This document shows positions 3,298 to 50,585 of a stretch of DNA of 53,081 bases, piece by piece; the first letter of the stretch is position 1, and each line of letters begins with the position of its first letter. A program made the translations under genes and the position numbers. The DNA is from an uncultured Thermotogae bacterium (GTDB lineage Bacteria > Bipolaricaulota > Bipolaricaulia > UBA7950 > UBA9294). The notes under the pieces were generated by a model that was not told where the DNA came from, did not search any database, and saw nothing but the letters and a program-made list of their open reading frames with translations. Location: the NCBI GenBank assembly GCA_964635895.1, contig CAZWQN010000001.1, forward strand, positions 1 to 53,081, in the 5' to 3' direction.

Positions 3298-3309
3298 ACG
3301 AACCCGGCC

Positions 3310-5072: not shown

Positions 5073-5227
5073 GTCCGTCCCCTCCCTGAACGACGTCGTC
5101 CCCCTTCGGAGTGGTTGCCCTGTCCGCGCGACGTCGCCGGTCCTACCCTGGCCGTACCGGGTGGCGAGAGCGTCTCTGCCTTGCAGAGATGCTTGACCCC
5201 ACGCATCGCACAGCCGAAGGGGGAACG

Positions 5228-6039: not shown

Positions 6040-6705
6040 ATGAAAGGGGCACGACTCTGTCTGTTGCTCGGCGCGACGGCCCTTGTGATTGGGTCCGTCG
6101 GCGGCTGTCTGGAGTTCGGCGTGACCCAGCCGCAGGCGCTGTTCACCGCCTCCCCCGCCGAGCACGTCATCCCGTTCACGGCGAGCTTCGACGGGACTCT
6201 GTCCCGCAAGGCTGGCTGTGACATCGTTTCGTACGTCTGGACGTTCGGTGACGGAGGCGGCGCCACCGGAGCCCTGGTCGACCACGCCTATACGGTGGAC
6301 GGCGTCTACAAGGTAACCCTGACGGTGATCGACGAGCGAGGGGCGTCCGACTCCACCTCGACGCACGTCGACGCCCAGAACCCGCTGCCGACCGCCACGT
6401 TCTCCTACTCGCCGAAGAGCAACATGGAAGGGACGTACATCATCGGCGCGAGCGAATGGGTCACGTTCGACGCCTCGGAGTCGGCCGACGACAGCGGGAT
6501 CACTCTGTACGAGTGGGACTTCGGCAACGGCGACACGGCCGTGGGCTCGATCGTCGAGTACCGCTACAGGATCGCCGGCATCTACAACGTCGTCCTCACG
6601 GTGACGGACGACGACGGAGATTCGTCGAGCTATGTGCAGCAAGTCACGGTCTTCGGCAACTCCCCGTGCGGCGCGGACGACACCGACGGAGGGACGTGCT
6701 CATGA
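6040..6705 (+). CDS. PKD domain-containing lipoprotein (2 PKD domains)
   Basis: Lipobox SVGGC. Two PKD signatures (FTASFDG...YVWTFGDG...HAYTVDGVYKVTLTVIDERG and VTFDAS...YEWDFGNGD...YRYRIAGIYNVVLTVTDDDG). Confidence 0.88.
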   Translation: MKGARLCLLLGATALVIGSVGGCLEFGVTQPQALFTASPAEHVIPFTASFDGTLSRKAGCDIVSYVWTFGDGGGATGALVDHAYTVDGVYKVTLTVIDERGASDSTSTHVDAQNPLPTATFSYSPKSNMEGTYIIGASEWVTFDASESADDSGITLYEWDFGNGDTAVGSIVEYRYRIAGIYNVVLTVTDDDGDSSSYVQQVTVFGNSPCGADDTDGGTCS

Positions 6706-7658
6706 TCCGACGACTCTGCGTGATCGCCCTCGTCCTCGCCCCGCTCTTCCTGTCCGGCTGCGTTCTGAACACGATCCTCGACGACGTGGTGAACTCCCTC
6801 CCTCGGTCGGTCATCGACGCCGCGCCCACCCAAGGCGCCGCGCCGCTCACCGTCACGCTCGACGCCCACTTCTCGCATGACGACGACGGATCCATCGTCG
6901 GGTACCGGTGGGACCTCGGCGACCCTGCCGCGGCCACCGGAGCCCAGCTTGGCTCGACGTGCACGCACACCTACCAGTACCCGGGGACGTACTTGGTCAA
7001 GCTGTCGGTCGTCGACAACGAGGGAGCGACGGACTCCCAGCAGATCGCGATCGTCGCGACGAACGCACCCCCCGTCGCGCAGGCGACGGCGAGCAACTCG
7101 GCCCCCTACCCGGGAGACCCCGTGACGTTCGACGCGTCCGACTCCTACGATGCGACGGGGACGATCGTGAGCTATGCGTGGACCTTCGGCGACGGCGGGA
7201 CCGGCGAGGGCGTGACGGCGGCCCACACGTACTCCAAGGAAGGAAGCTATACCGTGAGGCTGACTGTCACCGACAACGAGGCTGCATCGTCGGACACGAC
7301 GCTCGTGGTGGACGTCCGGGTGGGGTCGAGCAACTGCGGCGACGGTGATTGCGGCGACTCGTACACCCCGCTCGCCGTGATCACGGGCTTGCGCAACGGC
7401 TGCTCCAACTACCATACCGTCGGCAGTCCCGCCACGTTCGACGGCCTCTCCTCCCGATCGGAAGGCGGAAGCATCGTCCGCTATGAGTGGGACTTCGGCG
7501 ACGGCTCCACGGGCAGCGGCAGCACCGTGAGCCACACGTACGCCACCAGCGGCACGTTCGTCGTGAGGCTCACCATCACCGACGAGGCGGGAGCAGTGGG
7601 AACGGGTTCCGGCTACGAGAAGGTGCGCTTCCCATCAGATGGAGGCATCTGCCCGTAG
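6702..7658 (+). CDS. PKD domain-containing lipoprotein (3 PKD domains)
   Basis: ATG 6702 overlaps the upstream stop (ATGA). Lipobox FLSGC. Three PKD units with WDLGD/WTFGDG/WDFGDG cores. Cys-rich linker NCGDGDCGD. Confidence 0.88.
   Translation: MIRRLCVIALVLAPLFLSGCVLNTILDDVVNSLPRSVIDAAPTQGAAPLTVTLDAHFSHDDDGSIVGYRWDLGDPAAATGAQLGSTCTHTYQYPGTYLVKLSVVDNEGATDSQQIAIVATNAPPVAQATASNSAPYPGDPVTFDASDSYDATGTIVSYAWTFGDGGTGEGVTAAHTYSKEGSYTVRLTVTDNEAASSDTTLVVDVRVGSSNCGDGDCGDSYTPLAVITGLRNGCSNYHTVGSPATFDGLSSRSEGGSIVRYEWDFGDGSTGSGSTVSHTYATSGTFVVRLTITDEAGAVGTGSGYEKVRFPSDGGICP

Positions 7659-8411: not shown

Positions 8412-8415
<4 letters not shown>
7720..8415 (-). CDS. Secreted hypothetical protein with an internally duplicated ~100-aa domain
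   Basis: The GTG start overlaps the uvrA stop (GTGA). Signal peptide [14 protein letters not shown]. Two similar halves (..VVSNVG...CLVYDTDG.. and ..GLVNPH...LVLYDAEGG..). Confidence 0.7.
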
Positions 8416-11248
<2,833 letters not shown>

Positions 11249-11252
<4 letters not shown>

Positions 11253-13246
11253 AGACCCTTCCTGACGTTCCGCAGCTCATCGCGCAGGGTCGCGGCCAGC
11301 TCGAATTCGAGCCGCTCGGCCGCCCGGAGCATCTGAGCCTCCAGGTCCCGCGCGTACGCGAGAAGCTCGTCGCGCTTCGTGGCCTGCGGTCGCTCGCGCA
11401 CCGCGGCCGGAGTCTCCGGGCGCACGGCGTGGAGCGCCTGCAGGATGTCGGTGACCTCGCGCTCGATGCTCCTCGGGGTGATCCCGTGCTTCTCGTTGTA
11501 GGCGACCTGGATGCGGCGCCGGCGGTTCGTCTCGTCGACGGCGTGGCGGATCGAATCGGTCATCGTGTCGGCATAGAGGAGCACCCGGCCGCGGACGTTG
11601 CGCGCCGCCCGCCCGATCGTCTGCACGAGCGACGTCCCCGAGCGCAGGAACCCCTCCTTGTCGGCGTCGAGCACCGCGACGAGCGCTACTTCCGGAAGGT
11701 CGAGCCCCTCGCGCAAGAGGTTGATTCCCACCAGGACGTCGAACTTCCCGAGGCGCAGGTCGCGGAGGATGTCAATGCGGTCGAGCGTCTCGATCTCCGA
11801 GTGCAGGTAGCGCGCCCGCACTCCCGCGTCGACGAGGTACTCGGTCAGATCCTCGGCCATCCGCTTGGTCAGCGTCGTGACGAGCGCGCGGTCCCCGCGC
11901 TCGACGGTGGTGCGGATCTGGCCGAGCAAGTGGTCGATCTGCCCCTTCACAGGGAGAACGCTCACCTCTGGATCGATGAGCCCCGTCGGGCGGATGACCT
12001 GCTCGACCACCCGCTGGCTCTTCCGCTCCTCGTACAGGCCGGGGGTCGCCGACGTAAAGATCACCTGGTTCACCCGCTCCTCGAACTCCGAGAAGGTGAG
12101 AGGCCGGTTGTCGAGCGCCGACGGAAGTCGGAACCCGTAATCGACGAGCGTCGTCTTCCGCGATCGATCTCCGTGGTACATCCCGCGCACCTGGGGCACT
12201 GTCTGGTGCGACTCGTCGACCACGAGGAGGAAGTCGCTCGGGAAGTAGTCGATGAGCACGGACGGAGGCTGGCCGGCGCGGCGCCCGTCGAGGTGGCGGG
12301 AGTAGTTCTCAATGCCGTTGCAGTACCCCATCTGCTGCATCATCTCGAGGTCGTAGCGGGTGCGCTGCTCGAGACGCTGCGCCTCGAGGAGGCGGTTCTC
12401 GTTGCGCAGCACGGCGAGACGCTCCTCCAGCTCCTCCTCCACCGTGGACGTCGCCCGCTGCATCTGCTCGTCGGGCGTGATGAAGTGCGACGCCGGGAAG
12501 ATCGTGATCGCCGCGACGTCCTCGATCGCATGTCCGGTGACCGGGTCGAGGAGGGCGATCCGCTCGATCTCGTCGCCGAAGAACTCGAGGCGCACGACCC
12601 GTTCCTCGTACGCGGGGATGATTTCCACCGTGTCGCCCCGGGCGCGGAACGTCCCTCGCTCGAAGCCGATCTCGTTCCGGCTGTACTGCAGGCCGACCAT
12701 CCGCCGCATGACGTCGTCGCGATCCCACGACGAACCGCGCTCGAGGGTGACCGACATGTCGTAGTAGCTCGCCGGCGACCCAAGGCCGTAAATGCACGAG
12801 ACGGATGCGACGATGATCACATCGCGCCGCTCGAACAGCGCCGCGGTCGCCGCGTGGCGGAGTCGATCGATCTCGTCGTTGATCGAGGAGTCCTTCTCGA
12901 TGTAGGTGTCCGTCTGCGGGATGTACGCTTCCGGCTGGTAGTAGTCGTAGTAGGAGACGAAGTAGTGAACTGCGTTGTCGGGAAACAGCTCGCGGAACTC
13001 GTTCGCCAGCTGCGCGGTGAGGGTCTTGTTGTGCGCGATCACCAGGGTCGGCCGCTGCACCTCCTGGATGACGTGAGCGATCGTGAACGTCTTTCCGGTC
13101 CCGGTCGCCCCCCACAACGTCTGGAACTGCAATCCCGAGCGAACCCCGTCCACCAGCCGCTCGATGGCCGCCGGCTGGTCGCCGCAGGGCTCGAGCCTGT
13201 TCGAGATTCGGAAACCCGCCGCTTCGCCGATCCGTGAAAGTCTCAT
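11249..13246 (-). CDS. uvrB: Excinuclease ABC subunit UvrB
   Basis: GDQPAAI..L, helicase motif [15 protein letters not shown] box, C-terminal UVR motif. ATGA overlap with uvrA. Confidence 0.98.
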
Positions 13247-28128: not shown

Positions 28129-28839
28129 CTACGGCGCCGGGTCGAGCGTGATCTCCCCGGTCCCGCGCCGGGTATGGCGCATGGAGAAGTCGTCGGAGAG
28201 GTCGTTGTAGGCGACGAGGATGGGATACGTTCCCCCGGGCACCAGCCTCTTGTCCGTCGAGTCGCCCGAGTCGAGCGGAATCACGAACTCGACCACCGTC
28301 TGGTCCGCCCACTGGTGCCCGGCGGAGGACATCACGTGGTCCGCCCCCCCGAGCTTCGTATCCGCGTCGTGGCCGGTGGTGGAGTTGCCGTAGTCATCGC
28401 GGACCGTCACGATCCCCTCGCGGACCGATCCCAAGATGAAGTTCGCTCCAAGCATCCCGTCCACAGGGTCCAGGCCGATGGCCACGTACCCCGTTCCGGG
28501 GCTGACGAGGCCGACGCACAGGACTCGGCTGTCGTTCATCCAGTGCACCTCGACGTCAGAGACCTTTGTCGAGTGCGCATACTCGCCCTCCGAGATGACG
28601 CCCTCCACAGACGACAGGGCCGTTCGTGGCGGCGCCGCCGGCTTGGGCTCGGGACTCGGAGCCTGCGTCACCGGCGCCGCCGTGCTCCCCTCGACGGCCG
28701 CAGGCACCTGGGGTGCCTCCGCCGCCGGCGTCGTCTCCGTCACCGCCGACTCTCCCGCCGGCCACTGCGTCAACACGAGCCAAGTCGCGAACCCCGCTGC
28801 AAGAGCCACGCCAAGAACAACCAAGATCCACTTGCTCAC
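28129..28839 (-). CDS. Membrane-anchored DOMON-like (EB_dh/haem-binding-like) domain protein, paralog 1
   Basis: GTG 28839 with GGAGGGGG RBS (alternative ATG 28869). N-terminal TM helix, Pro/Ala/Thr linker, C-terminal domain GEYAHST...HW.ND...GYVAIG.DP...M.GANF. About half of the residues are identical to CDS 31555-32394 by eye. Confidence 0.75.
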   Translation of the reverse strand: MSKWILVVLGVALAAGFATWLVLTQWPAGESAVTETTPAAEAPQVPAAVEGSTAAPVTQAPSPEPKPAAPPRTALSSVEGVISEGEYAHSTKVSDVEVHWMNDSRVLCVGLVSPGTGYVAIGLDPVDGMLGANFILGSVREGIVTVRDDYGNSTTGHDADTKLGGADHVMSSAGHQWADQTVVEFVIPLDSGDSTDKRLVPGGTYPILVAYNDLSDDFSMRHTRRGTGEITLDPAP

Positions 28840-31554: not shown

Positions 31555-32394
31555 CTATCCCGGATCTAAGCGCATCTTCCCAGCGCCGCGGCGGCTGTGG
31601 TACGTGTCGAAGTCGTCGCTCGTCTCGTGGAAAGCGATGACGATGTCGTAGGTATTTCCCGGCAGGAGCGGCTTGTCCATCCGGTCCCCGGAGTTGAGCG
31701 CGATCATGAACTCCACGTACGTCTGTCCCTCCATCTCGCGACCTGCGGCGGCCAGGATGTCGTCGGTGCCTCCGAGACTCACGTCCGCCGCGTGAGTCAG
31801 GGCTCCGTTCCCGTAGTCGTCACGCGTCCAAAGCTGGCCGTCCCGCACCGCCGCCAACACGAAGTTCGCTCCCTGCATCCGATCGTCCGGATCGAACCCG
31901 ACCGCGACGTACCCAGCCCCGGGGCTGAGCACCCCCACGCGCAGGAACGAGGCGTCGTTCCACCAGTGGATCTCGAACCCGCCCGCCTCGGTGCTGTGGG
32001 CGTACTCGCCCGCATAGATCACTCCGTCGACCGCAATCACCGGCGGCCCACCCGGGTTGGGTAGGGGCTGCAACTCCGTCGGCTCCACGACTTGGACGAA
32101 CGACGAGGCGGGCGCGGGCTGCGGTGAAGCAGCCTGCGGCTGGGTCGTGGTCGCCGCTGCCGCCGGGCTGGCCGACGTCGAGGACACGGGTTTCGTCGTG
32201 GTCGCGGCGGTCGCGACCTGCGCTGACGTCGTCGCGTAAGGAGGTGATATCGTCTGCGAATGTGCTGCATGCGTCGCCGGCACTTCGGCAACGCCGTCGC
32301 CCCCGGACGACGCGAGCGCTACCACCAGCGCGATGATCCCCGCTGCAACAAGAATCCCAATCAGGATAAGGGTTTCCTTATTGATGACCACCAT
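31555..32394 (-). CDS. Membrane-anchored DOMON-like domain protein, paralog 2
   Basis: ATG with GAAGGAGG RBS. N-terminal TM helix, Thr/Ala/Pro/Ser linker. The C-terminal domain is collinear with CDS 28129-28839. Confidence 0.8.
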   Translation of the reverse strand: MVVINKETLILIGILVAAGIIALVVALASSGGDGVAEVPATHAAHSQTISPPYATTSAQVATAATTTKPVSSTSASPAAAATTTQPQAASPQPAPASSFVQVVEPTELQPLPNPGGPPVIAVDGVIYAGEYAHSTEAGGFEIHWWNDASFLRVGVLSPGAGYVAVGFDPDDRMQGANFVLAAVRDGQLWTRDDYGNGALTHAADVSLGGTDDILAAAGREMEGQTYVEFMIALNSGDRMDKPLLPGNTYDIVIAFHETSDDFDTYHSRRGAGKMRLDPG

Positions 32395-33671: not shown

Positions 33672-33975
33672 CGGGTTCGGTGAGTTCGTTGAGTTCGTCG
33701 GGTTCACTGAGTTCGGCGGGCGATCGGAAGCTGAGATCGTAGGGCAACCGGAAACTCGTCCCGGAACCCTACGAACTCAACGAGCCCAACGAACATCTGT
33801 CTCGCCCGTCGTCCGATCGAGCCCTACGGACTCAACGAACAGCTGCCTCGCTCATCGTTCGATCGAACACTACGAACAGCGGCGCCGCCCGCTCCGCGCG
33901 GTCAACCCAACGAGCCCAACGAGCTCTATGAACTCTATGGACTCTTCGAACCCGACGAACCCGCGCCTCGCCCGT
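33672..33975. repeat. Non-coding region of degenerate direct and inverted short repeats
   Basis: GAGTTCG x3 (33682-33715). Its complement lies within CCCTACGAACTCAACGAG (33767-33784) and CCCTACGGACTCAACGAAC (33822-33840). Exact 15-mer CAACGAGCCCAACGA at 33778-33792 and 33908-33922. Perfect 13-nt inverted repeat GTTCGTCGGGTTC (33693-33705) / GAACCCGACGAAC (33948-33960). Confidence 0.8.
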
Positions 33976-39813: not shown

Positions 39814-39836
39814 CCGCGGGTGCGCCGCCCGGCAGA

Positions 39837-39861
39837 GAAACCGGGACACAAACCCTATTTC
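39837..39861 (+). repeat. REP copy (imperfect palindrome GAAACCGGGACACAAACCCTATTTC)
   Basis: Read directly. Can form a ~9-bp stem with loop ACACAAA. Confidence 0.85.
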
Positions 39862-39893
39862 TCCCGAGTCTGCGGCCACCCGAGTCGGAGCAA

Positions 39894-39918
39894 GAAACCG
39901 GGACACAAACCCTGTTTC
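39894..39918 (+). repeat. REP copy (GAAACCGGGACACAAACCCTGTTTC)
   Basis: Differs at 1 nt from the copy at 39837. The period is 57 bp. Confidence 0.85.
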
Positions 39919-39990
39919 GCGCGAGCCCCGGCTGCCGGAATGGAAATGCGACGAGCCCCACATCTCCTTACCTTTATGCTATGATCGTGC

Positions 39991-40647
39991 ATGCCGCGCA
40001 TTGGGCGGATCGTCATCCCGGGCCTCGCGCACCATGTCACCCAACGCGGCGTGCGCCGGATGAGCGTCTTCTTCACTGACGCAGATCGTCTCATGTACCT
40101 TCACCTCCTCCGCGAGCAGGCAGATCGGGCAAACCTCCACTTCGTTGCCTGGTGTCTGATGCCCAACCACGTGCATCTCATCGCGGTCCCCGAACGTGAG
40201 ACGAGCCTCGCGAGGGGCATCGGCGAGGGCCACCGTCGCTACACGTGTGCCCTCAACCAGCGCGAGGGTTGGCGGGGCTACCTCTTCCAGGGGCGGTTCT
40301 ACTCCTGCCCGCTGGAGGGAGCGCATGTCGTTGCCGCTGTGCGATACGTTCTGCGAAACCCAGTTCGCGCAGGAATGGTCGCCCAACCTTGGGAGTACGA
40401 GTGGTCGAGTGCCCGATGGACCGTCGGATATACGTCAGCAGATCCCTTGGCGGAGCGCACGCCTCTCACGGACGAAGTCGGCGACTGGAAGAGCCTTCTT
40501 CGCGAGGAGCCGTCCGAGGGCGACGTTCTTCGCCGCCATACGCGGACAGGAAGGCCTCTTGGCAGTCCCGCGTTTGTCAGGCAGCTGGAGGACCTCACCG
40601 GCCGAGTCCTTGAGCTACGCTCACCGGGGCGCCCGCCGCGGCATTAG
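39991..40647 (+). CDS. REP-associated tyrosine transposase (RAYT, Y1/IS200-like HUH transposase)
   Basis: HUH motif LMPNHVHLI and Tyr motif RYVLRNPVRAGMV. 218 aa, single gene with no tnpB. Flanked by REPs. Confidence 0.88.
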   Translation: MPRIGRIVIPGLAHHVTQRGVRRMSVFFTDADRLMYLHLLREQADRANLHFVAWCLMPNHVHLIAVPERETSLARGIGEGHRRYTCALNQREGWRGYLFQGRFYSCPLEGAHVVAAVRYVLRNPVRAGMVAQPWEYEWSSARWTVGYTSADPLAERTPLTDEVGDWKSLLREEPSEGDVLRRHTRTGRPLGSPAFVRQLEDLTGRVLELRSPGRPPRH

Positions 40648-41595
40648 GGTTTGTGTCCCGGATTCCTCGACGAGCCTGCCGACGTCGAGCGGCTCGGGCT
40701 TCGACGGGTCACGGACGAGAGACAGCGCGCCCTTCGGGCACTTCGAGACGCACACGCCGCACCCCATGCAGCGGGCCTCGTCGACGCGGACCGCCGTCTC
40801 TCCCATCTCGAGCGCCCCGAACGGGCACGCCTCGACACACGCGCCGCAGCGGACACACGACGTCTCGACAACGCGGCTCACGTAGCCGGACGACGCAAGC
40901 ATCGGTGTCCCGTGTAGGAAGGACTGCATCGCGCCGCAGCAGCACGAGCAGCAGTTGCAGATCGCGTAGAACCGACCGAGCATCGCGTCCTTGAGGAAGG
41001 CGTGGTGCACGTGGCCACGCTCGTGTTCGGCGCGCAGGATCTCGGTCGCCTCGGTCTGGGTGACCCAACGCGACGTCTCCGGCTGGTGCTCGGCGATGAA
41101 GCTCGCGAACGGCTCCCCCACGATCAGGCACACGTCGAGCGGCAGGCACGGTTTCTCTCTTGCCGAGCGACACGGACACTCCAGCGCGACGATGTGGTCG
41201 GGATGCTTGAGCACGATGTCGCGTGCGGCGGGGTATGGGATCACCTGCTCGAGACCGCGCAGCTCGACGTCCACATCGAGAGTGACGAGCCGCTCCGCCG
41301 CGTCAAGCGGCATCACTTTCCCGTGGTAGTGGTCGGCGAACGCGTTGTGCCCTGCTTGCGTCCCGCCCTTCCTCCGAGACGCCATCCACAGCCCGAAGTA
41401 GGCGATCGGCCGCATCCAGAATCGAGTTGACTTCGGCCGGATCGCCGTGCCGATGTACTCGTACGGCCACCGCCCGTAGATGTAGGCGTGCACGAAGTCG
41501 AGCAGCGAGTAGCCCTCGAGCTTCCGCCCTTCGCGGTAGAACGCACGCGTCGATGTTCGGACGAGTCGCCACCTGCCTCGCGCTTGCATCATCAC
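40621..41595 (-). CDS. 4Fe-4S dicluster domain-containing protein with an additional Cys-rich motif
   Basis: Two ferredoxin motifs (CVRCGACVEACP, CMGCGVCVSKCP) plus CNCCSCCCG and CPC. The C-terminal 9 codons overlap the RAYT 3' end and the REP. Confidence 0.8.
   Translation of the reverse strand: MMMQARGRWRLVRTSTRAFYREGRKLEGYSLLDFVHAYIYGRWPYEYIGTAIRPKSTRFWMRPIAYFGLWMASRRKGGTQAGHNAFADHYHGKVMPLDAAERLVTLDVDVELRGLEQVIPYPAARDIVLKHPDHIVALECPCRSAREKPCLPLDVCLIVGEPFASFIAEHQPETSRWVTQTEATEILRAEHERGHVHHAFLKDAMLGRFYAICNCCSCCCGAMQSFLHGTPMLASSGYVSRVVETSCVRCGACVEACPFGALEMGETAVRVDEARCMGCGVCVSKCPKGALSLVRDPSKPEPLDVGRLVEESGTQTLMPRRAPR
40645..40665 (-). repeat. REP copy, inverted orientation (TAGGGTTTGTGTCCCGGATTC)
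   Basis: Reverse complement of the core CCGGGACACAAACCCTA. It starts at the RAYT stop codon. Confidence 0.85.
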
Positions 41596-41661
41596 CTCCC
41601 ACTGGATCGAGCCATCACAGAGCGCTCCCCATCCTGCCCAGCCTGTTCGGCGTCACATCCA

Positions 41662-42411
41662 TCATCCGTGCCCCTCTTGCCGCCCTGATCGTCGCCACGA
41701 GAGAGACAGCACATGCCTGGGGCAGACGTCGACGCAGCGTGCACAGAGAACGCACTCGGAGTTCGACATGCGGTCTTGTTGCACCATTCCCTGAACGTCG
41801 AGGCCCATTGGGCAAGCACGGCTGCACGCGTCGCAGGCAACGCATGCCAGAGATCTCGCACGAAGGCGCGGCCCAGGCAGCCGCAGGCGATCGCGAAGCG
41901 CGCGCCCCAAGATCATGAACGGCGCCATCCAGCAGAGCGTGTGGCAGAATCCGCGTCGCCCGGCCCAGAGCGTCAGCCCGACAACGAGAGCCAGCACCCC
42001 GGCGAGCACCACCAGGCTGTAGACGCCCGAGACTGAGATCCCATGCCACGTCTGGTAACCGAGCTCGACGCGCCGCAGGCCTCCGGCCTTGACGGACAAG
42101 AACACGATGACGCCGAGCCACGGAAGCCACACGACGTACTTCACGCCGTCGAGGAGGCGCCAACGGAATGGCCGGTCACGAAGTCTGCTCGTTCCCTCCG
42201 CAATCGCGCCCGCAGGGCAGACCCATCCGCAGAACGCCCGGCCGAAGCCAAGGGCGAAGAGCAGCTGCGCGCCGAAGAGAACGAGGCTCCCGCTGGCAAT
42301 CCCCTCGCTTGCGGCCTGCAGCACAAGGTACGGCGACAGATAGTAGAACGTCACTGGAATGAGAAGGCCTGACACGGCCAAGACCATCGATCGAACGCGC
42401 TGACGAGACAT
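41662..42411 (-). CDS. Membrane-bound 4Fe-4S binding protein (NapH/MauN-like polyferredoxin)
   Basis: TM helices with the FCGWVCP motif. C-terminal CVACDACSRACP and CVLCARCVDVCP. Confidence 0.8.
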   Translation of the reverse strand: MSRQRVRSMVLAVSGLLIPVTFYYLSPYLVLQAASEGIASGSLVLFGAQLLFALGFGRAFCGWVCPAGAIAEGTSRLRDRPFRWRLLDGVKYVVWLPWLGVIVFLSVKAGGLRRVELGYQTWHGISVSGVYSLVVLAGVLALVVGLTLWAGRRGFCHTLCWMAPFMILGRALRDRLRLPGPRLRARSLACVACDACSRACPMGLDVQGMVQQDRMSNSECVLCARCVDVCPRHVLSLSWRRSGRQEGHG

Positions 42412-42464
42412 CCCTACATCACCTCACGGCCGACTGCTCGAACCGTATACCGCGCGCAGCGCCG

Positions 42465-42881
42465 TCATCGCTTGGCCGGCGGGACGAACGCGGAGTCGTC
42501 CACCGGCGCGCCGAATTCCTCCCGGGCGATCTTGAGCAGGAGCTTCCTGTGGCAGGGCTTGTCGTTTCCCTCGTAGCAGATGAGGAAGATGTCGCGCGTC
42601 TTCGCCCGCTCCGCGAGATCCTTGAGCCGGGCCACCGCCGCAGGGTCGTTCTTGACCTGCTCGCGGAACCGGGCTTCGTAGTTCGACTTCGCCCACGCGT
42701 AGTGAAAAGCCGTGGGGTATCCCTCGCCAGGCTTGAACTTCGCCTTCCACTCGTTGAAGTCGTCGAGCAGCTCCTTCGACGGCGCGATCTCATCGTTCCC
42801 CCGCCCGTGCATGACGAGCACGTACTCGGCGTTCTTCGGAAGCCGATCCTTCATGCTCAGATACGTTTGTCGCAGCGCCAT
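42465..42881 (-). CDS. DUF488 family protein
   Basis: ~138 aa with LAPS.EL, the F...Y..E motif and the CYE....CHR cysteine-histidine signature. Confidence 0.75.
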   Translation of the reverse strand: MALRQTYLSMKDRLPKNAEYVLVMHGRGNDEIAPSKELLDDFNEWKAKFKPGEGYPTAFHYAWAKSNYEARFREQVKNDPAAVARLKDLAERAKTRDIFLICYEGNDKPCHRKLLLKIAREEFGAPVDDSAFVPPAKR

Positions 42882-42963
42882 GCTTGACCCTTTCTGGGGC
42901 CGCGCCGCTGGACGAGGAGCGTCCCGTCCCCGCGGCGGCTCAGCCTCCCCTTCACGTCTTCAG

Positions 42964-44310
42964 CTACTCGCCGGAGTCCTCCACCACCTGCGGCGCTTCG
43001 ATCGTCACGGGACCATTCACGTCGGAGAGCTCCATCGTCCAGAGCGCCGAGCCCTCGTTTCCTTCCTCATCGATGGCCTTCGCCGTGAAGCGATAGCGAA
43101 CCGGATACCCTGCCTCGGCCATCCAGACATCTCCGGAGGCCTCCGCGACGTTGACGTCCTCGCTCTGCATCCAATCGCTGTACGTCGATGTATAGTGCCG
43201 TGCGGGAACCCCGTTCACTATCTCCGTTCCAACATACGTGGACGTCGTCCCGACGCCCTCCGCCAGCTCCGGCCAACTCGTCGACGGCGCGAACACGACA
43301 ACGGCCTGGGACACGAGCTCAGCGACCATCGTTGGGACGGGCGTCCACGTCTCACCCTCCCGCATCCAGGCCTCATTGCCGATGCGGATGATGCCGAACT
43401 CCTCGTCCGACTCCAGGTCTTTCCAGCTCACCATCTGGCGGTCGGGCCCCGCGACAGCGCCGCGCATCTCGATCGATCCCGATTCCGGCTCCCCCTCGAC
43501 TTTGCCGGTGAACGAGAACACGGTGACGTAGCGGTAGCTCTGCAGCCCCGCCAAGGCATCCACCGACTGCGCGAAGGCGACATCCGAAGCCGCGACGGCC
43601 TGATCGCCCTGCGCCTTCGCCGCGTCCACCGCGGGCGCAACCGGAGGCGCGGGAGAAGGCGCCGCCGCAGCCGCTGTCGCCACGATGGGCGCCGTTTGGA
43701 CAGCAGTCCCTGCGGCAAGCGCCGGAACAACGGTCCTCGCCGCGGGAGATTCCGCCGCAGGGGCTGTCGCCGTGGCAGCAGGCGCCGCGGCTTCCGCCGC
43801 AGGTTGACCCGCGGGACCTGGAACCTCCGGAGACTCGGGAGGCGGCACCACGGCCGCTGGCGTCACGGCAGGCCCCGTCTGGACTGCGGCCGCTGCGACG
43901 AACTCCGACACACTCGCAGAAGCCGTCGCCGGCGCCGCTGCCGCAGGAGGCGATGGTAGCGGTAGCGGCGCTGGCGGCGGAGTCTCTGCCGGCGCGGCCG
44001 CAGGAGGTGTCGTGACCGCAGTGGCTGTCACTTCTGGAGTCGGCGCTCCCGGAGCTGGTCCAGCAGGCGACGGCGCGGCAGACACTGGAGCCGCCGCCGT
44101 GGAGGCTCCGGCCACCGGGGTGGTCGTGGCCGCCGCAGGCGGCGTCGGCGCGACAGCCGCAGGAGCCTTGGTCGTGGTCGAAGTTGCTGTCTTCGGCGCC
44201 GGCGAGCTCGCAGGCTTCCGGCTCGACGTGCAGGCCACTACGGTGAGAAGCAGCGCCAACGCGAGGATCGCGAGCCCCGCGCACGTGACGATCACGGTTC
44301 TTCGTCTCAT
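42964..44310 (-). CDS. Lipoprotein with a ~220-aa Ala/Pro/Thr-rich linker and a C-terminal globular domain (hypothetical)
   Basis: RBS GAGAGGGGG. Lipobox TVVAC. Low-complexity stretch (roughly 43560-44230). C-terminal ~200 aa of mixed composition with no domain recognised. Confidence 0.72.
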   Translation of the reverse strand: MRRRTVIVTCAGLAILALALLLTVVACTSSRKPASSPAPKTATSTTTKAPAAVAPTPPAAATTTPVAGASTAAAPVSAAPSPAGPAPGAPTPEVTATAVTTPPAAAPAETPPPAPLPLPSPPAAAAPATASASVSEFVAAAAVQTGPAVTPAAVVPPPESPEVPGPAGQPAAEAAAPAATATAPAAESPAARTVVPALAAGTAVQTAPIVATAAAAAPSPAPPVAPAVDAAKAQGDQAVAASDVAFAQSVDALAGLQSYRYVTVFSFTGKVEGEPESGSIEMRGAVAGPDRQMVSWKDLESDEEFGIIRIGNEAWMREGETWTPVPTMVAELVSQAVVVFAPSTSWPELAEGVGTTSTYVGTEIVNGVPARHYTSTYSDWMQSEDVNVAEASGDVWMAEAGYPVRYRFTAKAIDEEGNEGSALWTMELSDVNGPVTIEAPQVVEDSGE

Positions 44311-44466
44311 CCTAACCCCCTCTCTTCCCGAGGTCGAAGAGCAGACCCCCGCTCTCCTCGTCCATGCCAGAGGGCGGGCCCGCTCTCCTCGCTTGGTCCG
44401 AGAGCGGACGTCCCACTCTAGCCACCGGCCACGGTGCTAGACAAAGCGCACTCGCACCGGCCGGTT

Positions 44467-44521
44467 GGGGACACAACCCAATTCGCAACGGAGACGATCG
44501 GCGAATCGGGATTGCGTCCCC
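44467..44521. repeat. REPIN-like doublet (two inverted REPs)
   Basis: GGGGACACAACCCAATTCGC (44467-44486) and the inverted GCGAATCGGGATTGCGTCCCC (44501-44521), separated by 14 nt. Confidence 0.8.
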
Positions 44522-44550
44522 GTGCGGTCGACCCGCAACGGAGACGATCA

Positions 44551-44569
44551 GCGAATCGGGATTGTGTCC
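44551..44569 (-). repeat. REP copy (GCGAATCGGGATTGTGTCC)
   Basis: Part of a 35-nt unit GCAACGGAGACGATC[G/A]GCGAATCGGGATTG[C/T]GTCC duplicated with a 50-bp period (44485-44519 and 44535-44569). Confidence 0.8.
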
Positions 44570-44601
44570 TTCGCACAGGCGGTCCGTAGCGCAGACAGCC
44601 C

Positions 44602-44620
44602 GCGAATCAGGTTGTGTCCC
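44602..44620 (-). repeat. REP copy (GCGAATCAGGTTGTGTCCC)
   Basis: Read directly. Same family core GGGACACAACC in inverted orientation. Confidence 0.75.
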
Positions 44621-44662
44621 GCAACCGTTGACGGCGGCCACATCGTCCTCTACTCTGCGCAC

Positions 44663-45358
44663 ATGCCAAAGCGCGTCCTGGTCATCGACAACTCGACCCA
44701 TCCCGCCACCTATCGCCCAGTCGACGAGTGGTCGCGGAACTTCAGTCGGGTGCCGTTCGATGTGGTCCACGTCCCGTCCCGCGAGCCCGTCCCGCCCCTC
44801 GATCGATACAGCCATCTCCTCATAACCGGGTCCGAAGCGTCGGTGTGTGATCCCCAGAATTGGTTCGACGTGGAGGCCGAAGCCATCCGTACTGCCGTGG
44901 AGCGAGGTCTCGCCGTGCTCGGCAGCTGTTTCGGCCATCAGATGCTCGCGTGGGCCCTCTCCGGCCGCGGGTACGTGCGCCGCGCGCCGACCCCCGAGCT
45001 TGGCTGGGTGACGATCGATATCCTCGCGCCCGATCCCCTGCTCGCGGATCTGCCGACGCCGTGGCACACGTTCGCCGCGCACCTCGACGAGGTTGTCGAG
45101 CCCCCTGCGCCGTGGCGTGTTCTTGCCGCCAGCCGAGCCTGCGCCGTGCAGGCCATGCGCTACGGAGACCGCCCGATCTGGGGAATCCAGCCTCACCCGG
45201 AAACCTCGCCCGACGAAGCCAGGACCCAGATGCGGGCGGGGATCAGCCAGCACCCCGAGTACGAGCGCGAGATCCGCGCCGCCATCGCGTCGCCCGTCCG
45301 CGACGACCGCACCGCCCCGAAGCTCGCCGCCGCGTTCCTCGCCTGCCGCGCAAACTGA
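44663..45358 (+). CDS. Class I glutamine amidotransferase-like protein
   Basis: Nucleophile elbow GSCFGHQ and IWGIQPHPE (His/Glu of the triad). Start at ATG 44663. Confidence 0.85.
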   Translation: MPKRVLVIDNSTHPATYRPVDEWSRNFSRVPFDVVHVPSREPVPPLDRYSHLLITGSEASVCDPQNWFDVEAEAIRTAVERGLAVLGSCFGHQMLAWALSGRGYVRRAPTPELGWVTIDILAPDPLLADLPTPWHTFAAHLDEVVEPPAPWRVLAASRACAVQAMRYGDRPIWGIQPHPETSPDEARTQMRAGISQHPEYEREIRAAIASPVRDDRTAPKLAAAFLACRAN

Positions 45359-45393
45359 GGCGCGAAGACAAGGTACGTGTCCCCCTCGTCGTA

Positions 45394-45446
45394 GGGACAT
45401 GACCCGATTCGCATCCGCGTCTCGCGCAAATCGGGATCGTGCCCCC
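45394..45446. repeat. REPIN-like doublet
   Basis: GGGACATGACCCGATTCGC (45394-45412) and the inverted GCGCAAATCGGGATCGTGCCCCC (45424-45446). Collinear with the doublet at 44467-44521. Confidence 0.75.
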
Positions 45447-45472
45447 AGTGTTCCTGCAACGCAGGTCAGAAT

Positions 45473-45488
45473 GCGATTTGTGTCCCGG
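45473..45488 (-). repeat. REP copy (GCGATTTGTGTCCCGG)
   Basis: Read directly. Followed by the partial TTTGTGTCC (45489-45497). Confidence 0.7.
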
Positions 45489-45508
45489 TTTGTGTCCATC
45501 GCGCTCGA

Positions 45509-45532
45509 GATAGGGTTTATGTCCCGGGTTTC
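45509..45532 (-). repeat. REP copy nearly identical to the RAYT-flanking REP (GATAGGGTTTATGTCCCGGGTTTC)
   Basis: Compared with the reverse complement of 39837-39861 (GAAATAGGGTTTGTGTCCCGGTTTC), a few differences. Confidence 0.8.
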
Positions 45533-45548
45533 TGCGGCAGACACAGCC

Positions 45549-46229
45549 TCACGCGAGACGCCGGATGCGAACCTCGATTTCGGGATGGTCGCGCAGGAGC
45601 GCGACGATGCGCGATGTGTCGGTGTCTCCGAAGTGGTACGGGTAGAGGAGCTTCGGCCGGATCGCGACCGCGGCGTCGGCGACCATCTCCGGCGTCATCG
45701 TGTACGGCAGATTCATCGGCAGGAAGGCGACGTCGATGTCGCGCAGCGCCTTAAGCTCGAGCGTGTTCTCCGTGTCGCCGGCGACGAGCACCCGCAAGTC
45801 GCCGAATGTGAGGATGTAGCCGTTGCCCTCGCCGCAAGGGTGGAAGGGATCTCCGCTCTCGCGTTTGTGGAGCAGGTTGTACGCCGGGACCGCCTCGACG
45901 CCGAGGCCCTGCACGACGGCCGTGTCGCCGTTTCGCATCGTCGTGCCGCCCTGGATCGCCCCCTCGCACAGCGCCGTGTGGACTACGCTCGTCGTCTTCG
46001 TACGGATGTGGGCCAGCGCGCCGGGGTCAAGGTGGTCGCGGTGCTCGTGTGTAATGAGGATCACATCCGCCTTCGGGAGCGTCGAGTAGTCGGCCACGCG
46101 GCTGAACGGATCGACATACACGTTCTTTCCCTCGTAGCGGAAGAGGAGCGACCCGTGCCCGAGGAACGTGATCTTCAAGTCCCCCTGCGACGTCTTGATC
46201 GTGTCTGTCTCAAACCCTTGCACCTGCAT
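45549..46229 (-). CDS. MBL-fold metallo-hydrolase
   Basis: THEHRDH metal motif. ATG 46229 with GGGAGGTG RBS. Confidence 0.85.
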   Translation of the reverse strand: MQVQGFETDTIKTSQGDLKITFLGHGSLLFRYEGKNVYVDPFSRVADYSTLPKADVILITHEHRDHLDPGALAHIRTKTTSVVHTALCEGAIQGGTTMRNGDTAVVQGLGVEAVPAYNLLHKRESGDPFHPCGEGNGYILTFGDLRVLVAGDTENTLELKALRDIDVAFLPMNLPYTMTPEMVADAAVAIRPKLLYPYHFGDTDTSRIVALLRDHPEIEVRIRRLA

Positions 46230-46373
46230 CCGCCCACCTCCCAAGTCGGCTCGCCCTCATCGTCTCCGACCAGTCTATCCGGGTCGCGCCGCCGAGTGGA
46301 GATGCGACGCGTGCCCCCCGATCCTCCACAGACGCTTCACAGCGTGCCCGCACGCGCGGAGTATGGTGCCGTC

Positions 46374-47321
46374 ATGGTCAAGAGACGCATCGCTCGCCGA
46401 TGGAGGGTCGCCCTGTGGATCGTGGGAGCGCCGGCTCTCGCCGTCGGCGGCCTCGCCCTCGCGCTCGTCTTGTCGACACCCTCGCCGCCCGCCGACTTCG
46501 TGCCAACCGTCGCGCGAAAAGAGATCCCCGCCGGCTGGGTCTCCGCCGACGTGCCCGTCGCCAGCTCTCCTGTGGCACGCACAGACGAGCCGGCCGCCGG
46601 CTTGGCCATGCCGTATGTCACCACGGGGAAGCTCGCGCTCTTCGCGAACGGGAAGCCGTTCGGAGAGGAAACGTACGAGCTGCGCATCGCGGAAGAAGGC
46701 ACGACGCTCACTTCGCGTGGGCGCTTCTGGTTTAAGGTCGTCCTCGCCACCGTCCAGGTTTCCTTCGAGCAGACGCTTGAGGCGGACTCCGACCTCCGGC
46801 CCATCCTCTACGTCGCGGAGTTCCACGCCCCCTTAGGCATGGATCGGAGCATTCGCGCGGCCGTCGCTAGCGACCGGCTCCTCGTCGAGCGGTCGGGAAG
46901 AGAGGAGGAGATCCAGATCGATCGAGATCGGACGTTCACGCTCGGCACGTTCAGCACGTACGCCCTCCTGCCCCAGCTGTTCGCGTTGCGCCGGAACGCA
47001 GACTCGGCGTCGCTCCAGGCCATCGTGCTCGGCGGCCCTCCGAGCCAAGAGGCGGACGCCGCAGGCACCCTTCCCCTCATCACCGTGCAATACGCCGGGA
47101 CAGCGCGGCTTCGTGCTGGACATTCCGTCTCCGCCGGGGACTTCGTCCTCGACGTCGACCACTGTCGTATCTCCAGCGCCGAGGGAGAGAGTGACCTGTA
47201 CGCCCGCGGCGCCGAGTTCCTCGCGTTTCGCGCCGGTGACGAAGACAACGTGCTGTGGGTCTACCGAGCCGACTTCTTCCCCAACGGCGTCGAGATTGTC
47301 GAGCAAGCGCCGTCGCCGTAG
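46374..47321 (+). CDS. Membrane-anchored hypothetical protein
   Basis: N-terminal TM helix (WRVALWIVGAPALAVGGLALALVL). This is the only plausible part of the 742-aa ORF 45093-47321. No domain recognised. Confidence 0.6.
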   Translation: MVKRRIARRWRVALWIVGAPALAVGGLALALVLSTPSPPADFVPTVARKEIPAGWVSADVPVASSPVARTDEPAAGLAMPYVTTGKLALFANGKPFGEETYELRIAEEGTTLTSRGRFWFKVVLATVQVSFEQTLEADSDLRPILYVAEFHAPLGMDRSIRAAVASDRLLVERSGREEEIQIDRDRTFTLGTFSTYALLPQLFALRRNADSASLQAIVLGGPPSQEADAAGTLPLITVQYAGTARLRAGHSVSAGDFVLDVDHCRISSAEGESDLYARGAEFLAFRAGDEDNVLWVYRADFFPNGVEIVEQAPSP

Positions 47322-47431
47322 CCCCCATCCTGCGGGGCGACCCGCTCCAGCACCGCGCCAGGGACCCACAGGGCAAGCGGCGATGCCGCGTACCTAGACT
47401 CCCCATTCTTACGGGTGTACAGAGCTGAGGT

Positions 47432-47526
47432 GCGTGTCCCCAGATCGCTGCGCAAGAGCCATTGGCAACCCCGGCCGCCGCGTTACATTGCTCAAGACCG
47501 CGTGCGCGTGTGTGTCCCCCGATCTC
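47432..47526. repeat. Two direct copies of a GTGTCCCC[A/C]GATC-containing motif
   Basis: GCGTGTCCCCAGATCGC (47432-47448) and GTGTGTGTCCCCCGATCTC (47508-47526) in a convergent intergenic region. Confidence 0.6.
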
Positions 47527-48846: not shown

Positions 48847-48861
48847 CTAGTGTCGTGTCCC
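48847..48861 (-). repeat. Motif copy CTAGTGTCGTGTCCC (reverse complement GGGACACGACACTAG)
   Basis: Read directly. Related to the copies at 48945 and 49167. Confidence 0.7.
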
Positions 48862-48944
48862 GTTCGTAGCCGTGCGGAGGAGCCTGAGGCGGATCCGCCA
48901 TTGGGCGGAGCCTGCCGACATCGTTGTCCGTTCAGCGATTTCGA

Positions 48945-48968
48945 GGACGCGACACTAGCGTCGCGTCC
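48945..48968. repeat. Palindromic element GGACGCGACACTAGCGTCGCGTCC
   Basis: 9-bp stem GGACGCGAC/GTCGCGTCC. Contains the motif GGACGCGACACTAG. Confidence 0.75.
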
Positions 48969-49166
48969 TTCAAGTCTCTGAGCCGGCAAGCGCGCCGGCG
49001 GTCTTCGCCCACCGCAACGTCGGTTCTCTTGAGAACAACGCGTGATGTGCGCCGGTGACGTGGCCGTCACGTCGCTCTTCTGGGGAGATGCTGCGACGCC
49101 ATTGGTGCGTACCTGAGCGGGATGAGACAGCACCCCAATCCCACCCGATACGAGACATCACTAACA

Positions 49167-49180
49167 GGACGCGACACTAG
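49167..49180 (+). repeat. Motif copy GGACGCGACACTAG
   Basis: Exact 14-mer shared with 48945-48958. Confidence 0.75.
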
Positions 49181-49229
49181 CAGGTTCGGCTGCAGGATGG
49201 CTGCCGAGCACTGCGAGAGGTCTTCCCCG

Positions 49230-50585
49230 TCAGGGGATGATACGGACGGCCTTCGGGGCTCTGTCAGCCCTGGAAACGTCATAGACCGTGTCTATGTCGG
49301 CGGCTGTGAGCCCCCAGGGGTCGACGCCGAGGGGGACGTAGCCGCCTTCGACGGCGGTTTCGGCGAAGGCGTAGGTCTTGCCGCCGTACTGCCAGAAGCT
49401 GCGGTCGGGGTGCGCGGCGACAAACGACGGCTGGACGGGAACCCAGGCGATCATGTGGTCGGCGTAGCCGTCGCCGCTGGTGTCGACGGCGACCATCAGC
49501 GCACCGTGGCCGAGGGTCCGGACGAGGCTGGTGTAGAGGATGGCGGTGTCTTCGCAGTCGCCGATCTTGTCGACGAGCATCTCGACGGGGTAGCGGGGGT
49601 ACTCGTACCACAGGGGGTCGTAGACGTACTGAATGCAGTTCTGCACGAAGAACAGGGCGTTCTCAAGCTGTTCGTGGTAGTCGACGGAGTTGCCGACGAT
49701 CTCGGCGGTGACTTCTTCGAGGTACTCGTCGTCGAGCGGATCGAGGACGTATTCGTCGTAGTCTCTGTTCGCCCACGGGGTCCGTAGTTGTGACTTGTAG
49801 TAGCGGTACAGGTCGAGGGAGATGTCAAGATCGCAGGTCTCTTCCTCTCCGCCGTATTCCCACTCGTAGTGTCGGGCCACGGTCCCTGAGGAGTTGATCA
49901 CGTTCGCGATCTCGACACCGGTCGTCGCGGTCTGCTCGCCGCCGTCGTTGTCCTCGATCGTGAGAGAGACGGCGTACGTGCCCACGGCGGAGTATTGGTG
50001 GTACGCGTTGGCGCCCGTGCCCGCGGCTCCGTCCCCGAAGCTCCACTGGTATGACACGATCTCACCGTCGGGGTCGTACGACCCGTTTGCGCTGAATCGG
50101 ACGGTCTGTCGTGGATACGCCGGGGACGGAAAAACGGAGAGCGCGGCGACGGGAAGCTCGTTCGATCCACGAACGCGGATCTCTACGGACGCGGCGGTTC
50201 GCCCTCCGCGCTTGTCGGTCACGGTGAGGGTGGCTTCGTAGGTTCCGCCGACTGCGTAGGTGTGGTCGATCCGCGATCCCGTGCCCTCATCTCCGTCGTC
50301 GAAGTCCCACTCGTAGCGGCGAATCACGCCGTCGGGGTCGTAGGAGCCGGTGCCGTCAAACTCGACGGTGAGCGGCGCAAGTCCCTGGGTCGGCTCGGCC
50401 TCGATCTCCGCCACCGGGAGGGTGTTCGGGAAGAGGAAGCATCCGGCTGCCGCAGATGCTGTCGCAGCAAGCAAAGCTGCCGCACACACAGCTCTCAAGG
50501 TGACGCAAGCTCTGCTAACCGCACCCCCGTTCGACTCACGCTCGCGTGCCGACCTCCAAGACCTACAGCCCATAGCAGAGAGCAT
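49230..50585 (-). CDS. Lipoprotein with two PKD domains and a C-terminal transglutaminase-like cysteine protease domain
   Basis: Lipobox AAAGC. PKD units (VEFDGTGSYDPDG..YEWDFDDGD and VRFSANGSYDPDG..YQWSFGDG). Core motifs GDCEDTAILYTSLVRTLG (Cys) and ADHMIAWV (His). The start is uncertain (ATG 50585 or 50573). Confidence 0.82.
   Translation of the reverse strand: MLSAMGCRSWRSARERESNGGAVSRACVTLRAVCAAALLAATASAAAGCFLFPNTLPVAEIEAEPTQGLAPLTVEFDGTGSYDPDGVIRRYEWDFDDGDEGTGSRIDHTYAVGGTYEATLTVTDKRGGRTAASVEIRVRGSNELPVAALSVFPSPAYPRQTVRFSANGSYDPDGEIVSYQWSFGDGAAGTGANAYHQYSAVGTYAVSLTIEDNDGGEQTATTGVEIANVINSSGTVARHYEWEYGGEEETCDLDISLDLYRYYKSQLRTPWANRDYDEYVLDPLDDEYLEEVTAEIVGNSVDYHEQLENALFFVQNCIQYVYDPLWYEYPRYPVEMLVDKIGDCEDTAILYTSLVRTLGHGALMVAVDTSGDGYADHMIAWVPVQPSFVAAHPDRSFWQYGGKTYAFAETAVEGGYVPLGVDPWGLTAADIDTVYDVSRADRAPKAVRIIP

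Follow-up and report, generated by a model that had tools for sequence, protein, structure and literature searches.

A probable TIRtron and its dispersed family of ~25-nt terminal repeats in DNA of the Bipolaricaulota

INTRODUCTION

This study concerns a gene for a Y1/HUH transposase-like protein, and the ~25-nt repeat units that bracket it, in a stretch of 53,081 nt from an uncultured bacterium (GenBank assembly GCA_964635895.1, contig CAZWQN010000001.1, positions 1-53,081), which is called the window below. The closest described systems are the TIRtrons and their transposases, the TIRYTs, both named by Di Nocera, De Gregorio and Rocco (2013, BMC Genomics 14:522; PMC3733652). In that work the terminal inverted repeats (TIRs) share the motif GGGGWSAS, can overlap with gene ends (the '3'ov' arrangement), and form moderately abundant families of singlets, dimers and clusters that occur in few genomes only. 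Quentin et al. (2018, BMC Genomics 19:475) equated the TIRYTs with subclass 2.1 of TnpA_Y1 and with Group 1 of the REP-associated tyrosine transposases (RAYTs; REP, repetitive extragenic palindrome) of Bertels. Proteins of this subclass have a median length of 238 aa and the motifs NHVH, FQ, Y---NP and SS; the HuH motif is NHVH or NH[YF]H, the W-motif is W[EQ] or FQ, SS lies in the proximal tail, and the distal tail is helix-turn-helix (HTH)-like (Bac_DnaA_C, HTH_23 or HTH_28). No REPs were found with subclass 2.1 in the same study. Bertels, Gallie and Rainey (2017) described Group 1 as the RAYT group most like insertion sequences (ISs), with 6% duplicates and some plasmid-borne members.

An earlier note on this DNA, made from its letters alone, had described the locus as a complete REPtron with its own REP family in a non-model lineage. 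Our analysis leads to a different assignment. We read the locus as a TIRtron, composed of a TIRYT gene (TnpA_Y1 subclass 2.1, RAYT Group 1) and inverted ~25-nt ends, whose protein would move dimers of the repeat in trans and whose mRNA would be leaderless, and we put the probability of this reading at about 0.8. The novelty claimed for the locus was overstated, because the class was published by Di Nocera et al. (2013) and has known members in Acidobacteria, Planctomycetes, Deltaproteobacteria and others. TIRYTs are the largest RAYT-related group, and the locus and its relatives extend the class to Bipolaricaulota, a host unreported for it; the current picture of REPs and RAYTs is unchanged by this locus.

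RESULTS AND DISCUSSION

Assignment of the transposase to the TIRYT class

Translation of the gene, which is intact, gives both LMPNHVHLI and RYVLRNPVRAGMV, the HUH and Tyr motifs pointed out in the earlier note. The HUH residues are N59-H60-V61-H62 and the catalytic tyrosine is Tyr119. In alignment with the closest PDB sequence, E. coli TnpA_REP (4ER8), they fall on its H-u-H and on its catalytic Y115, and N59, H60, H62 and Y119 are invariant across 28 homologues. Pfam Y1_Tnp matches the protein at 35.5 bits, above the cut-off of 23. The AlphaFold2 (AF2) model (pLDDT 91.6) has 4ER8_A as its top Foldseek match (E 1.2e-9, TM 0.75), followed by the TnpA proteins of IS608 and ISDra2 at ~1e-6; IS200 transposases also match. 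The enzyme is an intact Y1/HUH type, nearer to RAYTs than to IS200.

The motifs of subclass 2.1 are present as NHVH, FQ (YLFQGRF), Y---NP (RYVLRNP) and WSS (EWSSARW), all of them invariant or nearly so in the 28 homologues, and the length of 218 aa is near the median of the subclass. In a BLASTP comparison, for which Additional file 5 of Di Nocera et al. (2013) supplied the reference sequences, identities over the full length were 48.6% with Geobacter sulfurreducens GSU2396 (E 1e-64) and 41-45% with Pcar_3049, mlr6832, CC1445, BBta_5382 and Acid345_2776. RAYTs of E. coli, Pseudomonas and Stenotrophomonas were 24-30% identical and aligned in the core only (E. coli, 24.6% over 134 aa, E 1e-6). 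The likeness to TIRYTs includes the C-terminal tail, in which WSS is followed by TGRPLG...GR...GRP. Concerning the distal tail, a Pfam scan of the C-terminal tail down to E 10 gave no match, Bac_DnaA_C, HTH_23 and HTH_28 included. The AF2 model has three short helices there, at 166-203, which may correspond to the 'short version' of the tail described for subclass 2.1.2.

According to the canonical REPtron reading, the gene is a domesticated RAYT of the TnpA_REP type, which recognises its own species-specific palindromic REP and spreads it as REPs or REPINs (paired, inverted REPs). The fold argues for such a reading, since E. coli TnpA_REP (YafM, the partner of REPs and of bacterial interspersed mosaic elements) is the closest match both in the PDB and by structure, and the sole NCBIfam match of the protein is NF047646, REP_Tyr_transpos. 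However, this match reaches 65.6 bits, below the equivalog cut-off of 80, and the core-only identity to RAYTs stands against 41-49% over the full length for TIRYTs. Moreover, E. coli W94, Q95, E100, H101 and R104 correspond to F99, Q100, S105, C106 and E109 in a register set by eye on WQ/FQ and not by structure; in this register Q alone is kept, and E100, H101 and R104 are replaced. The window protein also differs from the REPtron enzymes by an extra C-terminal tail of ~75 aa.

An ordinary IS200 was excluded by the Y-motif, the protein length, the lack of tnpB and conserved synteny. The catalytic fold is shared with TnpA of IS200/IS605 elements (IS608, ISDra2), and so presumably is the chemistry of single-strand cleavage and joining. 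In contrast, the window protein has Y---NP where those enzymes have Y---Q, it is 218 aa long versus ~150 aa, no tnpB accompanies it, and its gene ends in inverted repeats rather than in two like-oriented subterminal hairpins. Furthermore, it is not found in high-copy identical form in this lineage.

Terminal units of the locus

The repeat units and other features are collected in Table 1. Upstream of the gene, the 25-mer GAAACCGGGACACAAACCCTRTTTC occurs in two direct copies with a 57-nt period, and the pattern of these left copies is GAAACCGGGACACAAACCCT[A/G]TTTC. The inverted copy on the other side, which as TAGGGTTTGTGTCCCGGATTC begins at the TAG stop (40645), has 3 mismatches, where 0 matches were expected in shuffles. 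This arrangement is as the earlier note had it. The 12-nt core GGGACAYRAMCC occurs 6 times in the window (0.07 expected), and a perfect 17-nt inverted repeat, CCGGGACACAAACCCTA / TAGGGTTTGTGTCCCGG, brackets the gene.

The core of the unit can be written (G/C)GGGACAC. In the gene-flanking copies it reads CGGGACAC and agrees with 7/8 positions of GGGGWSAS, which is a difference from the described TIRs. The GGGGWSAS-type forms GGGGACAC or GGGGACAG are found in dispersed copies of the window, in most homologous loci, and in the right copy of L008, a 10.4-kb stretch that carries an orthologue of the gene. As in described TIRtrons, the right repeat overlaps the gene end.

Table 1. Coordinates of the transposase gene, its terminal units and dispersed repeat units in the window
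Feature	Position	Strand	Evidence or score
Left unit, distal direct copy, 57 nt upstream of the nearer copy	39837-39861	+	39.0 bits; hairpin -5.2 kcal/mol, z -3.7
Left unit, gene-proximal copy, GAAACCGGGACACAAACCCTGTTTC	39894-39918	+	36.9 bits; weak hairpin -5.1 kcal/mol
Extended -10-like element TGcTATGAT, candidate promoter	39977-39985	+	Sequence; family profile
TIRYT gene, 218 aa, HUH/Y1 single-strand DNA transposase-like enzyme	39991-40647	+	Translation, Pfam, 4ER8 alignment, AF2 model
Right terminal unit, inverted; inner end gives the TAG stop (40645-40647)	40641-40665	-	35.8 bits; non-folding alone
Inverted dimer, 69 nt, of two diverged units (44460-44487 +, 44501-44528 -), GGGG ends outward, REPIN/MITE-like	44460-44528	.	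Position-weight matrix
Two more units (44551-44578 and 44601-44628)	44551-44628	-	Position-weight matrix, repeat finder
Five-unit cluster, GATase/metallo-beta-lactamase intergenic region	45364-45533	.	Position-weight matrix
Two degenerate units, next intergenic region	47421-47520	-	47421-47448, 10.5 bits; ~47497-47520, sub-threshold
Further degenerate copies of the form GGAC[AG]CGACACTAG; family membership tentative	48849-49185	.	Pattern scans

Folded as single strands, the upstream units form small hairpins of 9 and 8 pairs with the loop ACACAAA, whereas folding of the downstream unit was no better than that of shuffles. Hence the hairpin with a ~9-bp stem described in the earlier note stands, as a weak structure, for the upstream units and fails for the downstream one. 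Among 79 family copies, the longest stem within a unit had a mean of 3.90 versus 3.62 +/- 0.10 for permuted partners. On this small excess the notion of a conserved single-unit hairpin was dropped, and the unit is described here as a sequence-conserved TIR with weak, lineage-specific self-complementarity. A conserved single-unit hairpin is weakly supported, and a hairpin formed by paired ends is the more plausible substrate.

The tag GTAG/GTGG at the hairpin foot is absent from both strands of the unit. The locus is therefore assigned to the TIRtrons and not to the canonical REPtrons, because of the TIRYT homology, the lack of GT[AG]G and the replacement of the residues that read GTAG. A REPtron would also be a single gene between inverted units, and the small hairpin of the upstream units, together with a repeat family that is dispersed, intergenic and dimer-forming, fits it. 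Yet the right unit does not fold, the core is common to many phyla, and REPs were absent from subclass 2.1 in the study of Quentin et al. (2018); the weakly palindromic flanking unit, which heads a dispersed family, is in turn a difference from that subclass as reported. The strict REPtron reading is largely refuted, and we regard it as very improbable. From the claim of an intact REP-RAYT system there remain a lone intact Y1/HUH gene, nearer to RAYTs than to IS200, and a dispersed intergenic repeat; the canonical form of the claim falls with the NCBIfam score and the missing tag.

The family and its ends across phyla

Homologues of the protein form >8000 clusters at 90% identity. Among 50%-identity representatives there are 461 at E<=1e-30 and 10,194 at E<=1e-10, and a scan of one genome per species returned >565 relatives (best match 62%, the source species being outside that collection). 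Relatives occur in Bipolaricaulota, Desulfobacterota, Planctomycetota, Alphaproteobacteria, Abditibacteriota, Elusimicrobia, Acidobacteria and others. The broad and patchy range of phyla, the low copy number and the divergent paralogues are as in subclass 2.1.

Most of the ~60 readable loci, which come from many phyla, have inverted copies of a ~25-nt repeat on the two sides of the gene, with the consensus aatTccGGGGACAcaATAc.tattt. The right core lies <=18 nt from the stop codon in 36/49 loci, and the stop is often part of the repeat. The 'own REP family' of the earlier note was not upheld, since core and ~25-nt consensus are common to homologous loci in many phyla and match GGGGWSAS; the conservation of the core across phyla also differs from the species-specific repeats of REPtrons.

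A near-invariant 25-nt TIR placed tightly around promoter and open reading frame (ORF) in many phyla is what a minimal autonomous IS would show. In such a reading a unit of ~0.8 kb (TIR, promoter, leaderless ORF, stop in the TIR) moves itself and spreads horizontally, the single units and dimers are solo ends and derivatives like miniature inverted-repeat transposable elements (MITEs), and the fixed position reflects low activity. Near-identical TIRYT copies were found within two genomes, at 99.6% identity on a Syntrophaceae contig (L038; 28-699 and 2825-3496) and at 98.2% in a metagenome-assembled genome of Planctomycetota (L065/L068); several genomes hold at least two copies. These pairs are evidence that the whole gene was probably duplicated or transposed recently in other lineages. 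The IS-like character, duplicates and plasmid-borne members reported for Group 1 by Bertels et al. (2017) also fit a minimal IS. However, most paralogues of the same genome are only 55-66% identical, and a plasmid search gave only 22 records with a relative, none of them above 37% identity, which speaks against plasmids as carriers of this subfamily. The behaviour of the gene in its own lineage bears on the same question.

Inheritance in the Bipolaricaulota lineage

The exact window protein occurs on 16 metagenome contigs. On each of the six displayed of these 16, the gene order is the same, ABC exporter, TIRYT and convergent 4Fe-4S protein, and no tnpB or other IS gene adjoins the TIRYT gene. 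The lack of an IS partner was likewise correct for the window, where the neighbours are the ABC exporter and the 4Fe-4S gene. The host is a member of Bipolaricaulota (Acetothermia/OP1) related to Candidatus Bipolaricaulis, because UvrB of the window is 92% identical to UvrB of a Candidatus Bipolaricaulis sp.; uvrB (665 aa) lies next to uvrA (946 aa) at 8412-13246 of the window, on the minus strand.

In L008 the orthologue (73.7% identity) has the same position after the ABC exporter and the same unit on either side, and its stop codon is also inside the right unit. The same TIR arrangement, with a 21-nt inverted repeat, is present in CP070725 (L007). Neighbour proteins are 74-89% identical between the window and L008, and codons of the TIRYT gene differ by 74 synonymous and 58 non-synonymous changes. 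On the basis of this synteny, the neighbour identities and the codon differences, the comparison indicates that the gene has been inherited vertically under purifying selection in this lineage. More distant TIRYT relatives are found in other genomic contexts. One TIRYT locus was seen in this lineage, and no unit was gained or lost in six strain-level contigs that are 99.86-99.96% identical to the window.

For a minimal IS, one syntenic locus that includes the 74% orthologue, a host-like GC content of the gene (65%; window, 67%) and the lack of strain polymorphism are unfavourable. Taken with the paralogue and plasmid identities, they make self-movement of the whole ~0.8-kb unit rather unlikely as an account of the locus. 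Apparent vertical inheritance among close relatives is also a likeness to the REPtrons.

The convergent 4Fe-4S ORF shares 27 nt with the TIRYT gene, and the right terminal unit codes for the final residues of the 4Fe-4S protein (..ESGTQTLMPRRAPR*; window 40621-40665). The C-terminus of the L008 4Fe-4S protein is likewise encoded by the repeat (..LGTQTPFPATARPAK*; L008 5082-5136), and GTQT in these C-termini is what GGGACACAAAC encodes. At the 3' end of the 4Fe-4S gene, an inserted unit has replaced the original stop codon. L008 has two further genes, one for GGDEF and one for FmdE, between the TIRYT gene and the 4Fe-4S gene (2770-5136). This pair is flanked by like-oriented units (2782 - and 5126 -), whereas the window has one unit at the junction (40641-40665), and the difference points to a repeat-mediated deletion or insertion.

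Dispersed units and dimers

To locate further units in the window, copies of the window and the orthologue were combined into a position-weight matrix, with a threshold of ~1 false match per window. It gave 13 units from 39835 to 47448, and the two intergenic regions 44460-44628 and 45364-45533 account for ten of them, in agreement with the at least eight copies that the earlier note had placed within the next 5 kb. By the called genes, all window units are intergenic except the right terminal one. A match at 3432-3459 (10.6 bits) was set aside as chance, as it lies inside a long ORF and scores at the level of shuffled controls.

The dimer 44460-44528 folds into a single long hairpin (-15 kcal/mol), and its 41-nt offset is that of the modal dimer of the metagenome loci described below. 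Beside it, the unit 44551-44578 falls in a 50-nt tandem duplication (44484-44519 / 44534-44569; 36 nt aligned, 94%) of one unit plus spacer. Gene callers place the start of the downstream GATase gene at either 44522 or 44663, and 44663 leaves the repeats intergenic. Within the cluster 45364-45533 there is an inverted dimer (45386-45453; -13.1 kcal/mol), which is also present at the orthologous L008 site (9439 and 9490), a near-consensus unit (45506-45533, -), and a sixth, truncated core GGACACAAA starting at 45497 (-), which was unscored. Among the degenerate copies further downstream there is a palindrome (48944-48969; -12.3 kcal/mol, z -3.8) within a spacerless 55-nt inverted repeat (48902-49011, centre 48956/48957). 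This inverted repeat probably breaks assemblies, since the metagenome contig L006 stops at 48958. A structured-RNA explanation of the repeats was dropped, as an Rfam scan of 39-50 kb gave chance-level matches only.

L008 has 12 core matches (1.1 expected), mostly of the near-consensus form GAAAC.GGGGACACAAACCC.ATTTC; three inverted pairs are among them, and some copies run into gene 3' ends. Over parts of the window and L008 the density reaches ~1 repeat per kb, which is unusually high compared with described TIRtrons. High-GC dimers from relatives form near-perfect 22-bp hairpins (-24 to -26 kcal/mol, z -7 to -8.6), and the window dimers are decayed relative to them.

An exact-pattern scan of JGI metagenomes, which stood in for a genome-wide count, gave 99 stretches, and the following figures rest on 80 of the 99 (458 kb). 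These 80 loci hold 217 units, with a TIRYT gene in 2/80. Neighbouring units <=140 nt apart are in the +/- order 51 times and in the -/+ order 2 times, and the modal offset of 41 nt gives a 69-nt dimer with its GGGG ends outward. This polarity is that of a TIRtron minus its gene. By a crude gene model, 37/137 units lie in predicted coding DNA versus 75% expected (P ~3e-31). Through the intergenic DNA of the lineage the unit has spread singly, in tandem and as inverted dimers of 69 nt, comparable to the singlets, dimers and clusters of described TIR families, and the non-autonomous intergenic dimers are analogous to the REPINs of Pseudomonas RAYT-REPIN systems. The repeat is enriched and intergenic, the catalytic residues align and a single locus is seen in the lineage, so that none of the findings which the earlier note had named as refuting its reading applies.

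In several lower-GC loci, including L091, L103, L153 and L158, an asymmetric family of 69-nt dimers is built of GGGACACAAACCCTATTTC as left arm, AGGCTGCTCCTTGAGG as conserved spacer and GGAATTATGGTATGCGTCCCC as right arm. These dimers are a MITE-like relative in a different organism. L153 (8.8 kb, ~53% GC) contains three copies of the 69-nt dimer at different sites, and because the three keep a conserved non-palindromic spacer, they indicate that whole dimers were copied.

Positions of the units also allow an explanation by host function, i.e. that the repeats are kept as terminators, stabilisers of mRNA ends or protein sites, and that the transposase gene has become a passenger or a regulator and moves nothing now. 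Units at orthologous intergenic sites of the window and L008, the lack of strain polymorphism, and the many units at gene 3' ends, including the last 4Fe-4S codons in both species, would be expected of such elements. However, a strict scan found no terminator-like sites around the TIRYT gene, and the repeats match no Rfam family. In addition, copying of whole dimers, to which the L153 spacers point, and an intact TIRYT gene under purifying selection speak against a purely host role, which we consider quite unlikely.

Candidate promoter and probable leaderless mRNA

The extended -10-like element (Table 1) ends 5 nt before the ATG, and no Shine-Dalgarno (SD) sequence is present. In the aligned upstream regions of 69 family genes, TTGAC occurs at -35..-31, TG at -15/-14 and TAnnnT at -12..-7, and SD-like tetramers are found in 7/69. 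On this profile it is likely that genes of the family have a promoter immediately inward of the left repeat and are transcribed without a leader. The argument rests on the 69-gene profile because the strict scan discussed below is empty at the window gene; the leaderless transcript proposed in the earlier note gains support from this comparison across the family. For the class, the locus and its relatives add that the family consensus (~25 nt) exceeds the 8-nt motif, that the promoter abuts the left end with an mRNA that is probably leaderless, and that the stop is usually inside the right end.

Proposed mechanism

In the TIRtron reading, a leaderless mRNA would be made from the promoter that lies next to the left repeat, on its inner side. 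From what its homologues E. coli TnpA_REP and IS608 TnpA do, the TIRYT protein would be expected to bind single-stranded DNA, either at a unit or at the hairpin of a dimer, and Tyr119 and the metal held by the HUH would cut and rejoin that DNA. Dimers could thereby be copied or moved in trans, as has been proposed for RAYTs and REPINs. Mobilisation of the repeats by the TIRYT protein is inferred from these analogies.

Several points weigh against this reading. To our knowledge, no TIRYT has been tested biochemically, and binding and cleavage of the unit are known by inference only. Complementarity within single units is only slightly above permuted controls, and the right unit has no hairpin; the window dimers themselves, at -15 and -13 kcal/mol, fold modestly (z ~ -1.8). 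Most dispersed copies in the window are of a diverged subtype (..CCCGATTCGC) and not of the gene-flanking type, and they might come from another, unseen TIRYT or be relics. A strict scan for two-hexamer promoters found nothing at the window gene. For the source genome, unit counts and the TIRYT copy number cover the 53 kb of the window. Finally, there is no sign of recent movement in this lineage, as strain contigs are unchanged and L008 dimers lie at orthologous sites. From the lack of strain differences and the dimer at the orthologous L008 site, the repeat family therefore looks old and slow here, as described for REPINs.

We also offer, tentatively, a bolder proposal that we hold to be doubtful. 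TIRYTs could be unrecognised minimal ISs that hop between phyla, with an enzyme that works on paired inverted ends (the 22-bp hairpin of the 69-nt dimer, with GGGGACAC at its foot), unlike the single subterminal hairpins of IS200/IS605 and REP. The Bipolaricaulis lineage would then be a rare case, in which MITE-like dimers have bloomed to REPIN-like density while the master gene became fixed. If true, this would offer a natural system for a selfish Y1 element turning into a resident partnership of the REPIN-RAYT kind. In the TIRtron reading that we prefer, the lineage is of value as one in which the end sequence has been multiplied into strongly oriented 69-nt hairpin dimers, which give defined substrates for a first in-vitro test of a TIRYT.

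Other features of the window

Six clustered tRNA genes (Leu-TAG, Gly-GCC, Leu-TAA, two Met-CAT and Ala-CGC) occupy 368-941, and their T-arms account for two sites, 427 and 823, that nearly match the core of the repeat. PKD-domain proteins with internal Y(E/R)WDFGDG repeats, unrelated to the TIRYT locus, are encoded at 6456-7658 and 50059-50369. The repeat finder also reported a 139-nt direct repeat of 71% identity (28415-28553 and 31838-31976) and a 31-nt inverted repeat with 87% complementarity and a 58-nt gap (33675-33794).

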